This document shows, piece by piece, positions 33,435 through 46,574 of a DNA stretch of 64,000 nt (its first letter is position 1; each line of letters opens with the position of its first letter). The notes beneath the pieces are model-generated. The model did no database searches. It was not told the origin of the DNA and was given only the letters and a program-made list of their open reading frames with translations. Where the stretch lies: assembly GCF_053078305.1 (NCBI RefSeq), contig NZ_CP166879.1; one strand, given 5' to 3'. A program made the translations under genes and the position numbers.

Positions 33435-33859
33435 ATCGCACGTCTCTCCTCCTTGCGACACCGGCAGGACACCGGGCGCACATGGTCGGCAAGCGACGTC
33501 CCTGTAGCAAGGCAAACCATCGCTTCACGTGAGATGCTGAAAACGAAAGCTCATCCTTCTGCACTGGCGCACGTCGCCAGAAAGTAATGTTAATAAAGCG
33601 TAGTGAAACTTTTGCACAAAACAATACAAACTGTGTGGATTTATCTTTTAGCGATAAAAATGGACCTATTTTTCTTTTTGCCGGGCGGTGGGATGTTTAG
33701 CCTGTTGCTAAACGAGTAAAAGAGAAGGAATTCATGGTGATGAAATGATCAATCTGCTGTTATTTCACGCTATCAATGCACTTTTGGCTGTTTTTCAGGC
33801 AAACAAACAAATTAGGGGTTTACACGCCGCATCGGGATGTTTATAGTGCGCGTCATTCC

Positions 33860-33947
33860 GGAAGTGTGGCCGAGCGGTTGAAGGCACCGGTCTTGAAAAC
33901 CGGCGACCCGAAAGGGTTCCAGAGTTCGAATCTCTGCGCTTCCGCCA
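33860..33947 (+). tRNA. serT: tRNA-Ser (anticodon UGA), serT
   Basis: GGAAGTGTGGCCGAGCGGTTGAAGGCACCGGTCTTGAAAACCGGCGACCCGAAAGGGTTCCAGAGTTCGAATCTCTGCGCTTCCGCCA; long variable arm; CTTGAAA anticodon loop. Confidence 0.93.
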
Positions 33948-33953
33948 AACAAT

Positions 33954-33990
33954 CAAGGGGTTACCAAATGGTAGCCCCTTTCCTTTTTTT
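33954..33990 (+). terminator. serT rho-independent terminator
   Basis: AAGGGGTTACC-AAAT-GGTAGCCCCTT hairpin followed by TCCTTTTTTTGC. Confidence 0.75.
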
Positions 33991-34087
33991 GCTCTTAGTA
34001 TACACTTGGTATACTAATTGGTATATTTAGCTCAATACACACTAGGTACATTGTTCTCTTTACGATTTATCGCTATACCGATGAATT

Positions 34088-34417
34088 ATGAATAACCCCA
34101 ATCCATGCATGACGTGTGGTGCCTGTTGTGCATTTTTCCGCGTCTCTTTTTACTGGGCAGAAGCTGACGATGCTGGCGGAAAGGTTCCGGTCAGTCTCAC
34201 TGAGCAAATATCCCCCTTTCATCGCTGTATGCGCGGCACCAGTCAGAAAAATCCCCGATGTGTCGCTCTGGCGGGAACTCCGGGTAAAAACGCATATTGC
34301 TCTGTTTACAAAAACCGTCCGTCCACGTGCCGGGAATTCGCAATGTCCGGAGAAAATGGCATCGCAAATGAAGCATGCAACCGCGCCCGGGCAAAATACG
34401 GACTTCCGGAAATCTGA
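34088..34417 (+). CDS. YkgJ-family (CxxCxxCC) putative metal-binding protein
   Basis: 109 aa [31 protein letters not shown]...; only plus-strand gene in the insertion, between serT and tfa. Confidence 0.7.
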
Positions 34418-34545
34418 AAAATCATCCATATCAACAGGATGCACGAAAAATGAGAGTTCCATCACTTCCGGAATTAACTTTTCCGTGGCACTATTTACTC
34501 GGCATAGTGTATATCTTCACAATAATGACATAATCAACGCAGTTC

Positions 34546-34577
34546 ATGGGGGAGGTGATGGTCCCCCATCTTTTTGT
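34546..34577. terminator. hairpin terminator between convergent ykgJ-like gene and tfa
   Basis: ATGGGGGA-GGTGATGG-TCCCCCAT followed by CTTTTTGT on the plus strand. Confidence 0.6.
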
Positions 34578-34580
34578 CTG

Positions 34581-35252
34581 TTATTCCTGTGCCCAGCCAA
34601 CCCTGTATGCCAGGATCTCATCCGCACTGCTCAGCGATTCCAGGTCCTTCTTCATGGTGCGCTGGCGAATGTGGATTTCCATCCCTTTGGTGAACATCGC
34701 CTGCTCTGCCGCTTCACTCAGCGCAATAAGCTCTTCTGCTGTCACCGGCACATCATTGTTTTCCGCATCCGTCCAGAAAAACGCCTCCGGCAGTTTCCCC
34801 GATTTCGCTGCCGCCACCGACGGCTCAAGACGCGTCTGCGTTGACTTCCCGTAGTCCCATTTACGCCCATTGTGCTCAAACGTGTAGTTCGCCGCTTCCA
34901 TCGCATTACGCCAGGCGTTAATTTCATCGCCCTTCATCCCTCGCGCTTTCTCCGCGGTCAGCAGGTCCGTGATTTTCTCCCCGTCAAAACCCCAGCGCCC
35001 CGAGATGTCAGCTTTGCGGTTTTCTTCCGTATCCGCCACCTCCACCACACTCTGGCCCACTGGCCACAGAACTGATGCCACCCTGCTGATGCCGGTAATG
35101 ACTCCGGCACTGTTATAAACCACCTTCAGCGTCTCTGCTGAAAATAACGACTGACACTCATACCAGTCCTGACCATCCTCTGATTTCAGGTACATCGCAC
35201 CCGGCACATCCGGATTTTCCGGCGTGTATTGTCTGAAATTCTTTATGTGCAT
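34581..35252 (-). CDS. tfa: tail fiber assembly protein (Tfa family)
   Basis: 223 aa immediately downstream of stf; N-terminal VVY..G.I.GISR....SVVEV.D...NRKAD.SG.W.F pattern typical of Tfa/gpG chaperones. Confidence 0.7.
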   Translation of the reverse strand: MHIKNFRQYTPENPDVPGAMYLKSEDGQDWYECQSLFSAETLKVVYNSAGVITGISRVASVLWPVGQSVVEVADTEENRKADISGRWGFDGEKITDLLTAEKARGMKGDEINAWRNAMEAANYTFEHNGRKWDYGKSTQTRLEPSVAAAKSGKLPEAFFWTDAENNDVPVTAEELIALSEAAEQAMFTKGMEIHIRQRTMKKDLESLSSADEILAYRVGWAQE

Positions 35253-35293
35253 CTGTAAGTCCTCCCGGTTACATGTCTGAAAGATGATGCGCT

Positions 35294-37012
35294 TTATAAT
35301 GGAAAATACTCAAACCCCGAAGCTCCTGACGACACATACTCACCCACGCTGACTGTACGCCACTGAGAACCATCAAATGTCACCTGAAGCGGCCTGTAAG
35401 AAACCGATATCACACCATCTGCTCCTCTACTTTTCAGACCAGTAATCACAGCTCCTATACTCAGGCTTATTGACAGAAAACCAGAGCTCTCTTCTGCTCT
35501 GTAAGTCTGTTCATTACCCAGCCTGATACCCACAACCCGGCTCTTCCCGTCTGATGCCCCGGGCGGCCCCATCGGCCCGGTTTCTCCACGCTCACCTCTG
35601 GGACCGGGGTCGCCTTTCTCCCCTTTCGGTCCCTGCGCTCCCCGCGGACCAGCGGGGCCTGTTGCTCCCGTTTCACCTTTCGGACCCTGTGCTCCGGGGT
35701 CACCTTTCTCTCCTTTCGGACCGGGAACACCACCTCCTGCTGCAGCCTCTTCTGCCTTTGTTTTCGCTTCATTTGCCACATCCATTGCCGCCTTCACGGC
35801 CTTCGGCGTGGCTGCCTTTGTTTCGTCATTACTGCCAGTATCACTGCTTAACTGCACCACACCTTTCTGCGTCGTGCTGGCATCCCGCTGGCTGACCGTA
35901 TCCGGTTTGTTTTTTGTGCTGTAATCCACCCGCCAGTGGAAATACCGTGTGTCGCCGTAAACCGTACAGGTACAGACCGTGCCATTAATAAACCCCGTTG
36001 CACCGTATTCGCCAATGGTGACCCGGACTATGGCAGCCTCATACGTTCCCATCACCTCAATGACACAGCCACCCAGATTGAGTTTTCCCGGTCCGACATC
36101 CGTGATGACTTTATTCATTGACGCAAGCAGTGATGCCTTCATCATCCAGTAAGGCTGGTCAAATGCCCCTTTTTCTTTCAGCCAGGCAACAAACTCGCGT
36201 GTTTTCCATTCACCGGCCCCCGTATGAATGTCCCGCCCGTATACTCTGGCTGCTCCCACGGTGTTCAGAAACTTCACCTTATCCGGGATATCATCACCGT
36301 TTTTCGCTTTCTCCAGGCATCCGTCCGCTTTGTCCATTGCCGCTTTCACCGCTTTCGGCGTGGCTGCCTTCGTTTCATCATCACTGTCCGTTGCGCTGCT
36401 TAACTGCACAATTCCCTTCTGTGCCGTCGTCGCATCCGGCCCTCCCGGCTCGCCTTTTTCGCCCTTCTCTCCCCGTTCACCTTTCACACCCTGAAGCCCC
36501 TGTGGTCCTGTCTCACCACGCTCACCCTTTGGCCCCCGCTCGCCGGTATCGCCTTTTGGCCCGGGAATACCCTGCGGCCCGGTGTCCCCCTTATCCCCCT
36601 TCGGTCCCCGCGCATTCTCTGCCCGTTTCTTCGCTTCCTCTGCACTCGCCGCTGACGCTTCCGCACGTTTCAGGATTTCCGCTGCCACCGCTTCCAGCTC
36701 TGCAAGGGCTTTCGGGTAATACTGTGCGTCTTCCAGGTCCATCAGAAATTTATTCAGCGTTCCCGGTGCAGAATCCGCCTTCACCAGAATGTCACCCACA
36801 TATGACGGCGCGTACCCTTCCGTGTTCAGCGTCACCCGGTACAACCCCGGCTCAACATCCATACTGTAACTGCCGGTTTCCCCCGGCTGACCATACGCCA
36901 CCGTGGTGACAATCACCATCTCCGTTGTGCGGCGCGCTTTCAGCTCTATCGTGCATCCCGGTACTGGTTTTCCCGTACCATCCTTCAGCACACCCGATAT
37001 TCTGACTGTCAT
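35294..37012 (-). CDS. stf: side tail fiber protein Stf with collagen-like repeats
   Basis: 572 aa; N-terminus [28 protein letters not shown] resembles lambda Stf; two G-X-Y repeat blocks; duplicated KGIVQLSS...[15 protein letters not shown] motif. Confidence 0.88.
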
Positions 37013-37154: not shown

Positions 37155-37295
37155 TTACTGCTTACACTGTAAGAACGCCGCAATCTCCGCGCCCGCTATC
37201 CGGAACCGGAACTCGCACAGTGAACTGTGGGTGATCCAGATAATGAGCACTACCGTGATACAAATCACGGTGGTTTTTAACGGTTTTTGCGACAT
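37155..37295 (-). CDS. Hok/Gef-family small membrane toxin (46 aa)
   Basis: Hand translation MSQKPLKTTVICITVVLIIWITHSSLCEFRFRIAGAEIAAFLQCKQ; AAGGAG SD 8 nt upstream; TM helix then LCE.R.R..G.EIAAF motif; coordinates approximate. Confidence 0.6.
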   Translation of the reverse strand: MSQKPLKTTVICITVVLIIWITHSSLCEFRFRIAGAEIAAFLQCKQ

Positions 37296-37493
37296 AAACG
37301 CTTGCTCCTTTTACGGAGAGGCGCTAACCTTCAATTTGCTGAAGATCGAAAGTCAGGCCTCGGGTTAAACATGAATGTTTGTCCGGGGCCTTCGTCTTTC
37401 CGGCCTTCAGGTGTTCCCTCCGGCCATCAGCCAAAGGCACCCGCGCATACTGTACGGTTTTTGTCTCCTTCCGGCAATCCCGGGGCGCGATGT

Positions 37494-46180: not shown

Positions 46181-46574
46181 ATCTCACACCTCCGGAAATC
46201 CCCGCTGAAGCCATCATTAATGCAACATCATCTTCGCTGACATCCACCACATCCGCAGAAGGTGAAATATCGCCCCCACCCACCCCACAGAACCGGACGC
46301 CTCCGGCAACTCCTGCCGCTTTCTGCATCAGCATGTCTTCCTCGTCCGGCATCTCCGTCTGCTCTTCCTCACACGCTGGCGCAAGCAGACTGAAATCCGC
46401 CGGATGCATATCCGGATCGCCAAAAAACAGGCTGAGTACGGCGTACATCAGCCCGGAAAAATGAGCGTCCAGTTGGGTATCCTGAAAATAATGCGTGCAG
46501 TAAAAACGTCGCCAGTCGGCATATTCGGTGGATGTCATCCCGGCAAGCATGGCGCGCCAGTCGGGTCTCCCCAT
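46161..46574 (-). CDS. T: tail assembly chaperone T (expected to be made as G-T fusion by -1 frameshift)
   Basis: ORF in -1 frame relative to G, overlapping G 3' end; frame is open from the A-AAA-AAG slip site into T. Confidence 0.8.
   Translation of the reverse strand: MGRPDWRAMLAGMTSTEYADWRRFYCTHYFQDTQLDAHFSGLMYAVLSLFFGDPDMHPADFSLLAPACEEEQTEMPDEEDMLMQKAAGVAGGVRFCGVGGGDISPSADVVDVSEDDVALMMASAGISGGVRYVPASG

Follow-up and report, generated by a model that had tools for sequence, protein, structure and literature searches.

An intact short-form ykgJ-like gene at the tail-fibre end of a serT prophage and its kinship with the dinI-ykgJ cassette of Shiga toxin phages

In Escherichia coli K-12, the CxxCxxCC family of cysteine-cluster proteins is represented by YkgJ (b0288; Pfam PF03692, formerly UPF0153), whose gene adjoins the ecp operon. 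Related DNA is also carried by Shiga toxin (Stx) phages, in which Nakamura et al. (2021) described 309 bp homologous to the “ykgJ/ecpE intergenic region”, including a 96-bp secondary attachment site termed attB-in-PP_2 (PMC8112680). The same authors reported that prophage ykgJ/ecpE-like DNA is used as attB by other lambdoid phages, and concluded that phages took the attB-in-PP_2 region from the E. coli chromosome (PMC8112680). In phage VT1-Sakai (Sp15), this slot is occupied by a promoter, an SOS box and dinI (H0001), together with a truncated 66-aa open reading frame (ORF) labelled “similar to YkgJ” (H0002). Here we describe a complete ykgJ-like gene from a 64,000-nucleotide stretch of contig NZ_CP166879.1 (assembly GCF_053078305.1), hereafter the window. 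Judged from the alignments presented below, this gene represents a recurrent dinI-ykgJ cassette that here lacks dinI; so far, the cassette has been recognised only in the form of the truncated H0002 of VT1-Sakai and of the attB-in-PP_2 region.

Several described systems frame what such a protein might do. FliB, the flagellin lysine N-methyltransferase of Salmonella, carries an oxygen-sensitive [4Fe-4S] cluster on an N-terminal CX4CX3CC motif, and this cluster is needed for S-adenosylmethionine-dependent lysine methylation (PMC8598068). For DpdM (DUF3109), a phage dPreQ1 methyltransferase, YkgJ has been given as the E. coli homologue, with two Cys metal sites (PMC10516641). K-12 ykgJ itself is listed among the targets repressed by RyhB, in a regulon of iron-using proteins (PMC4666370, PMC8534726), and its deletion leads to filamentous cells in biofilm (PMC8743551).

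In its genomic setting, the window gene resembles the morons found at the tail-fibre/attachment (att) end of lambdoid phages, such as lom, bor, eib and the type III secretion system (T3SS) effector genes of “exchangeable effector loci”. It occupies the same slot, is oriented opposite to the late genes and is followed by its own terminator-like hairpin, and eibE and nleC are found at the corresponding position in related phages. Unlike these genes, which encode surface or secreted virulence factors, it encodes a predicted cytoplasmic metal-cluster protein with a host paralogue. We consider it quite probable that a lambda-like prophage at serT carries this gene as a moron, which would be a remnant of the dinI-ykgJ cassette and encode an intact short-form YkgJ that most likely binds iron.

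A short-form YkgJ gene inside a serT prophage

The coding sequence (CDS) extends over 34088..34417 on the plus strand, from an ATG start to a stop codon included in the end coordinate, and its translation contains all the motifs that a preliminary description of this locus had quoted for a 109-aa Cys-rich protein. The product belongs to the short-form YkgJ (CxxCxxCC) family: it matched PF03692 (CxxCxxCC, “putative zinc- or iron-chelating domain”) with 46.6 bits (E 5.7e-12; gathering score 23), and residues 6-98 aligned to profile positions 1-85 of 85, i.e. to the full profile. Among its nine Cys residues (7, 10, 13, 14, 47, 58, 71, 81 and 97), eight (C7, C10, C13, C14, C58, C71, C81 and C97) are invariant or at least 90% conserved across 110 diverse relatives, down to 42% identity, and the N-terminal four (C7, C10, C13, C14) follow a CX2CX2CC spacing. 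Automatic annotation already names the gene “YkgJ family cysteine cluster protein”.

PF03692 was the only Pfam match at E <= 1, with neither DUF3109 nor Fer2/Fer4 among the hits; no NCBIfam model was matched at E <= 1, and neither PHROGs nor PADLOC returned a match. The protein is therefore neither a member of a catalogued phage family nor a known defence component. A structure model was compact and confident (pLDDT 94), no sequence or solved-fold match was found in the PDB, and the best structural match in BFVD was a weak one to a phage “zinc- or iron-chelating domain” protein (E 0.12, TM-score 0.45). Some sources name the protein a ferredoxin; we rejected a classical ferredoxin on the lack of Fer2/Fer4 matches in Pfam and of sequence or fold matches in the PDB.

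Comparison with K-12 YkgJ indicates that this protein has been under long-term constraint. The two proteins are both 109 aa long, share 84% aa identity, all Cys residues and the same short C-terminus, whereas the genes are 79% identical at the nucleotide level with saturated synonymous divergence. Blastn aligned window positions 34052-34404 to positions 1501-1853 of the K-12 locus (L009) at 81% nucleotide identity. By the Nei-Gojobori method, synonymous divergence (dS) between the two genes is about 1.4-1.7 and non-synonymous divergence (dN) about 0.08, i.e. a dN/dS of about 0.05, so that the gene has been kept functional; the combination of high dS and low dN/dS further identifies the window copy as an old, selectively maintained paralogue of ykgJ. 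Among six phage copies of the window lineage, all are intact and differ by 3-13 synonymous and 0-3 non-synonymous changes (dN/dS 0-0.1). Given the PF03692 score and the dN/dS against K-12 ykgJ, 34088-34417 is a genuine gene and not a chance ORF.

The gene lies within a prophage. Upstream of it, hyaB and hyaA (minus strand) are followed by serT, a tRNA-Ser gene (anticodon UGA) that served as the integration target (33860..33947, plus strand; ARAGORN, and Rfam tRNA at 57.5 bits). The window and K-12 are identical up to and including the tRNA end, and their sequences part at about position 33950. The far prophage end falls outside the window, and the boundary was mapped via the near-identical genome FHI_NMBU_10 (99.6% identity over 33801-35405), in which a 46.5-kb prophage extends from serT as far as an integrase gene adjoining yccA. 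That prophage is flanked by a perfect 62-bp direct repeat of serT sequence (positions 90-151 and 46513-46574 of locus L029), with the second copy between int and yccA; mapped onto the window, this att core corresponds to the 3' part of serT at 33888..33949. No second att copy was found by a repeat search within the window, because the window ends inside the prophage. Taken together, the 62-bp repeat and the divergence from K-12 at about 33950 assign all DNA from 33950 onward to the phage, and the ykgJ-like gene begins 138 bp inside it.

Since divergence sets in directly after the tRNA, the hairpin at 33955-33980, previously read as the serT terminator of the host, is instead a replacement terminator supplied by the phage, the original one staying at the int-yccA end. 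The statement that K-12 has yccA at this position was borne out: in K-12-type strains yccA directly follows serT, with nothing between, and the ykgJ-like gene was not seen in prophage-free strains, where its presence would mark it as core.

Across genomes, the gene moves with the phage end that carries it. Among 5426 complete E. coli genomes, 85 carry the gene together with its flanks, mostly STEC (Stx-producing E. coli) serotypes negative for the locus of enterocyte effacement (LEE); in only 30 of the 85 does it lie at serT. In three non-serT examples examined, all prophages at potB, a contiguous block comprising the ykgJ-like gene, a 163-bp spacer and the tail fibre assembly gene tfa is 96-99% identical to the window; the similarity sets in precisely with the start codon, upstream of which the att arm differs. 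More diverged short-form copies (71-88% aa identity) occupy the same slot, att-adjacent and convergent with tail fibre genes, in prophages at ompW, at yecD and in Salmonella, the Salmonella prophages having a different tail module. The same block at serT and potB and the same slot elsewhere imply that the gene travels with the phage tail-fibre end and not with serT, as expected of the prophage-end cargo that the preliminary description had envisaged. A scan of IMG/VR yielded 68 viral loci, of which 35 with close, full- or near-full-length relatives were analysed for neighbouring genes. Most copies lie within ~1 kb of a contig end, and on contigs with enough flank the ykgJ-like gene is mostly followed by convergent tail fibre genes (Tfa, Stf, Lom, J).

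This distribution also bears on the proposal, likewise made beforehand, that the gene is a remnant of an earlier insertion at serT, taken here as the leftover of a since deleted element unrelated to the present prophage. Such a history would suit a gene that adjoins an att site, where scars of old integrations collect, and whose 60 bp of upstream sequence are not the same at serT and at potB. It is contradicted by the location of the gene inside the 62-bp repeats of the present prophage, by the contiguous, nearly identical block in potB prophages, and by an unrelated prophage carrying espK (L003), also integrated at serT, which shares the att arm only up to 34028 (96% identity) and has no ykgJ-like gene. 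We therefore regard a leftover of this kind as barely conceivable.

The INPHARED phage records present the gene in a different state, with fragments only and no complete E. coli copy. Phages 1720a-02 and P-EibE retain a 3' remnant, Stx1a potB phages the first 66 bp, and many Stx phages the first ~105-114 bp. The gene thus recurs on phages, as a member of a conserved phage family would, but it lacks both a PHROGs match and a complete E. coli copy in INPHARED, so that the description of a well-known family applies only in part.

The dinI-ykgJ cassette and the attB-in-PP_2 region

The kinship of the window gene with the dinI-ykgJ cassette is apparent from phages that retain both genes. Two IMG/VR contigs (L035 and L037) carry an intact dinI, a 139-bp gap and a full-length ykgJ, followed by convergent tail fibre genes, and in the yecD prophage a 1.9-kb insert separates dinI from a full ykgJ. 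The dinI-ykgJ' pair of Stx phages (H0001-H0002 in VT1-Sakai) with its attB-in-PP_2 locus occupies the same position as the window gene, between att and the convergent tail fibre genes, in the same orientation, and approximately the first 105 bp of ykgJ' are homologous to the window at 80%. The two arrangements differ in the part that has been kept. Stx phages have the SOS box and an intact dinI along with only the first ~114 bp of ykgJ homology, often with T3SS effector genes such as nleC after it, whereas the window has the complete gene without dinI, the SOS box or the 96-bp att segment. In the window, ~36-52 bp of the native upstream region are kept and the SOS-controlled dinI is absent; a pattern search over 33950-34087 found no LexA box, and dinI homology was likewise absent there. 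By contrast, the relatives L035, L037 and VT1-Sakai do have a LexA-box-associated dinI directly upstream of ykgJ. The dinI half of the SOS-box/dinI-ykgJ cassette probably disappeared where the remaining part joins the serT-type att arm.

To relate the window to the published attachment site, we placed both on the K-12 locus. By alignment, the 309 bp of Nakamura et al. correspond to L009 1344-1650, comprising 193 bp upstream of ykgJ and its first 114 bp. Based on the published lengths (29 + 96 + 184 bp) and blast boundaries, attB-in-PP_2 would then lie at L009 1373-1468, between dinI and ykgJ. Homology of the window to K-12 starts at about 1485-1501, and we accordingly rejected the possibility that the window holds attB-in-PP_2. 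The fragments in Stx1a potB phages were similarly considered as attB-in-PP_2 regions and rejected, as only the first 66 bp of the CDS are found behind the potB att arm.

These coordinates matter for an explanation in which the DNA, and not the protein, is what counts, the segment offering other phages a secondary attachment site. The reported use of prophage ykgJ/ecpE-like DNA as attB by lambdoid phages (PMC8112680) speaks for such a role, as do the 204 phage records that match the K-12 ecpE-ykgJ region. The window, however, does not include the predicted 96-bp segment, and an attachment-site role leaves the purifying selection on the protein unexplained, which makes it highly unlikely here.

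Local signals, the cargo slot and dispensability

The phage DNA between serT and the gene can be divided into two parts. The first (33950..34028, plus strand) is an att arm common to other serT prophages, with 96% identity to the espK prophage, and includes the terminator, a set of TTGGTATA repeats and a sigma-70-like match. The hairpin at 33955-33980 with its T-run has a folding energy of -18.8 kcal/mol (z -4.3). The TTGGTATA-type repeats (33999-34030) are shared with another serT prophage and are probably integrase arm-type binding sites. The sigma-70-like match (33999-34027; TATACA-17-TATATT with TG, 9/12 consensus positions) could, as a consensus match only, drive the ykgJ-like gene. The second part is the 5' leader of the gene (34029..34087, plus strand), delimited by blastn and by alignment to the K-12 upstream region: over its last 36 bp (34052-34087), homology to the sequence upstream of K-12 ykgJ is clear, and weaker similarity is suggested back to about 34036. 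In contrast to K-12 ykgJ beside the ecp operon, the prophage copy has had its upstream region replaced beyond about -50.

Downstream of the stop codon, a spacer (34418..34545) is followed by an intrinsic-terminator-like hairpin (34546-34569) with a T-run (34546..34579, plus strand), identified by a terminator scan and folding energy, 129 nt past the stop and with an energy of -14.5 kcal/mol. Because this hairpin also lies directly past the stop of the convergent tfa gene, it possibly terminates both transcripts. No Rfam RNA family was detected between the ykgJ-like gene and tfa. In other phages, the position of the spacer is taken by eibE (P-EibE) or nleC (Stx2 phages). P-EibE (L011) matches the window at 34334-34413 and 34541-34700, the 2.7 kb between these matches consisting of eibE and orf-156E, and nleC follows the truncated ykgJ in Stx2_12E129 (L015) and other Stx2 phages. 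These alignments mark the stretch from the ykgJ-like stop codon to tfa as a cargo slot.

As a moron, the gene, flanked by the att site on one side and by the tail-fibre genes on the other, would be transcribed against the late operon, from a promoter probably located in the att arm and towards its own terminator-like hairpin. Several observations weigh against this picture. The only promoter-like match upstream of the gene overlaps the likely integrase-binding TTGGTATA repeats, the Shine-Dalgarno sequence is weak (GATGA), and the downstream hairpin, which the preliminary description had called the gene's own terminator, is indeed present with its T-run but has an energy that is ordinary for its composition on the plus strand (z -1.3). 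Roughly half of the distinct IMG/VR copies are frameshifted or truncated, indicating that the gene is dispensable for the phage. Finally, as NCBIfam, PHROGs, PADLOC, PDB and fold searches returned no match, the evidence for a relationship to FliB and DpdM consists of similarity between motifs and of what the respective papers state.

Some of these points would be expected if the gene were a passenger without a selected role, captured or inherited, en route to decay and hitch-hiking with the tail-fibre end. The broken IMG/VR copies include a widespread frameshift after codon 16, many Stx phages have just 66-114 bp fragments left, effector and eib genes stand in the same position in some of those phages, and the ribosome-binding site is weak. 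The window lineage behaves otherwise, with 6/6 copies intact and an excess of synonymous (3-13) over non-synonymous (0-3) differences, a dN/dS of 0.05 against K-12 despite saturated dS, and all eight family-conserved Cys residues retained. We thus consider it unlikely that the window gene is a mere passenger, and prefer the reading as a maintained moron. The frameshift after codon 16 is shared by many dinI-linked prophage copies in IMG/VR (L050-L065), and hence a single pseudogenised lineage is widespread.

Beyond the hairpin, the window continues into the late operon. The last gene of this operon, tfa, is a tail fibre assembly/DUF4376 gene at 34581..35252 on the minus strand (phrog_11571, E 4.7e-150; RefSeq annotation of the twin genome) and is convergent with the ykgJ-like gene, as had been described. 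It is preceded in the operon by a side tail fibre gene with collagen-like repeats (35294..37012, minus strand; phrog_366, E 2e-118). This gene is one 572-aa ORF in the window and is annotated as broken fragments in FHI_NMBU_10; it contains a direct repeat of 108 nt with 81% identity (35781-35888 and 36333-36440). Between it and gene J lies a hok/gef-type toxin ORF of 46 aa (37155..37295, minus strand) with a sok antisense RNA match (37284..37442, minus strand; Rfam RF01794, 63.5 bits), and on the same side gene J is followed by the remainder of the lambdoid late operon. All recognisable phage genes in the prophage part of the window are on the minus strand. Four plus-strand ORFs were tested, of which three had no match and one matched only PHROGs of unknown function, and many plus-strand ORFs overlap minus-strand phage genes. 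As far as checked, the ykgJ-like gene is thus the only plus-strand gene of this prophage part, in line with the initial reading.

Origin of E. coli ykgJ and possible roles of the protein

The phage cassettes also inform the history of the chromosomal gene. The K-12 ecpE-ykgJ spacer (L009 1225-1536) aligns with phage dinI (compare L013 2810-3058 and L035 1-712). DinI residues 34-55 and 65-80 are still encoded there, but each stretch in a frame of its own, which identifies the spacer as a dinI pseudogene. Over 508 bp, the phage cassette of L035 shares 90% identity with K-12, and the two YkgJ proteins are 94% identical. Most Enterobacterales have a long-form YkgJ of 131-137 aa. In E. albertii, a 134-aa long-form ykgJ lies between ompW and yciC (L022 6001-6405), and in E. 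coli just the final ~125 bp of this long form (96% identical) are left beside yciC, so that the ancestral long-form ykgJ appears, from these alignments, to have been deleted in E. coli. In a neighbour-joining tree, midpoint-rooted, without support values and built on ~109 columns, the K-12 protein clusters with the short forms from phages and is separated from the long forms.

These data point, with somewhat better than even probability, to a descent of E. coli ykgJ from a prophage dinI-ykgJ cassette, i.e. to a direction opposite to the one proposed previously (PMC8112680). The reverse transfer, in which phages acquired ykgJ from the E. coli chromosome, is the published conclusion of Nakamura et al. 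(PMC8112680), and would account for a chromosomal ykgJ that is nearly universal (at least 4982 of 5426 E. coli genomes match) alongside phage copies that are patchy and often broken. It is harder to reconcile with a dinI pseudogene in the K-12 spacer where phages have an intact dinI before ykgJ, with the close match of the L035 cassette and its YkgJ to K-12, with the clustering of K-12 YkgJ with phage short forms, and with a long form at ompW-yciC in E. albertii of which only the 3' end is left in E. coli. We consider the chromosome-to-phage direction less probable, if a serious alternative.

Independently of its origin, the ykgJ/ecpE intergenic region is listed as mutated in four of eight E. 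coli lines evolved for tolerance to ampicillin and ciprofloxacin, either as independent events or as ancestral variants (PMC7952611).

For regulation by iron, a RyhB duplex is predicted in all copies over codons 9-15, which are the CxxCxxCC codons (window 34114-34132). An extra pairing near the ribosome-binding site is present in K-12 (CUGGUG) and in some phage copies and is lost in the window (CCGAUG, 34070-34087), with predicted duplex energies of -29.8 kcal/mol for K-12 vs -22.7 kcal/mol for the window. These predictions, controlled with mononucleotide shuffles and suggestive only, made use of a RyhB query that occurs once in 5424 genomes.

Sequence comparison shows that the gene resides in the prophage, moves with the phage end, belongs to the YkgJ family, is under purifying selection and is kin to the dinI-ykgJ cassette; we infer the expression of its protein in the lysogen, the metal content and the biochemical activity. 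In a lysogen, the protein would supplement host YkgJ as an additional copy under different control. A [4Fe-4S] cluster would be expected on C7/C10/C13(/C14), and a second Cys site could be formed by C58/C71/C81/C97. Considering the RyhB listing of K-12 ykgJ together with the FliB and DpdM literature, we give an even chance to the window protein being an iron-sulfur protein, possibly a distant relative of these two enzymes. FliB and the window protein both have an N-terminal Cys motif ending in CC and eight conserved Cys residues, and the authors of the FliB study compare its motif with PF03692 (PMC8598068). The motif spacing differs, with CX4CX3CC in FliB vs CX2CX2CC in the window, and the window gene has no flagellar context. 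DpdM is similarly phage-encoded and Cys-rich, with a CxxxCxxCC motif over two predicted metal sites (PMC10516641), but the window protein matches PF03692 and not DUF3109, and no 7-deazaguanine pathway genes, including dpdA and preQ1 genes, are annotated in the twin prophage of FHI_NMBU_10. Methyl-transfer chemistry on an amine, as the two enzymes would suggest by analogy, is the weakest step of the explanation, and we think it improbable for the window protein.

The linkage to dinI and the filamentation of ykgJ mutants are only a hint of a tie between ykgJ and the SOS response or cell division. In a bolder scenario, short-form ykgJ would belong first and foremost to phages, as the downstream member of a dinI-ykgJ moron under SOS control at the att/tail-fibre end of enterobacterial prophages, with the core ykgJ (pseudo-dinI plus ykgJ beside ecp) domesticated after deletion of the ompW-yciC long form, and with the protein a small [4Fe-4S] enzyme or factor acting with DinI on SOS recovery or cell division. 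We hold this scenario to be speculative and rather unlikely as a whole.

On its own, the gene merely adds another case to the accessory genes of prophages, and its value lies in comparison. It provides the intact form of a sequence seen in Stx phages only as the truncated H0002 and as the landing pad attB-in-PP_2, and it marks the slot that effector and eib genes occupy in related phages. The phage origin suggested here for E. coli ykgJ would reverse the published direction of transfer, and the linkage to dinI and the SOS response offers a concrete handle on the RyhB-controlled YkgJ.

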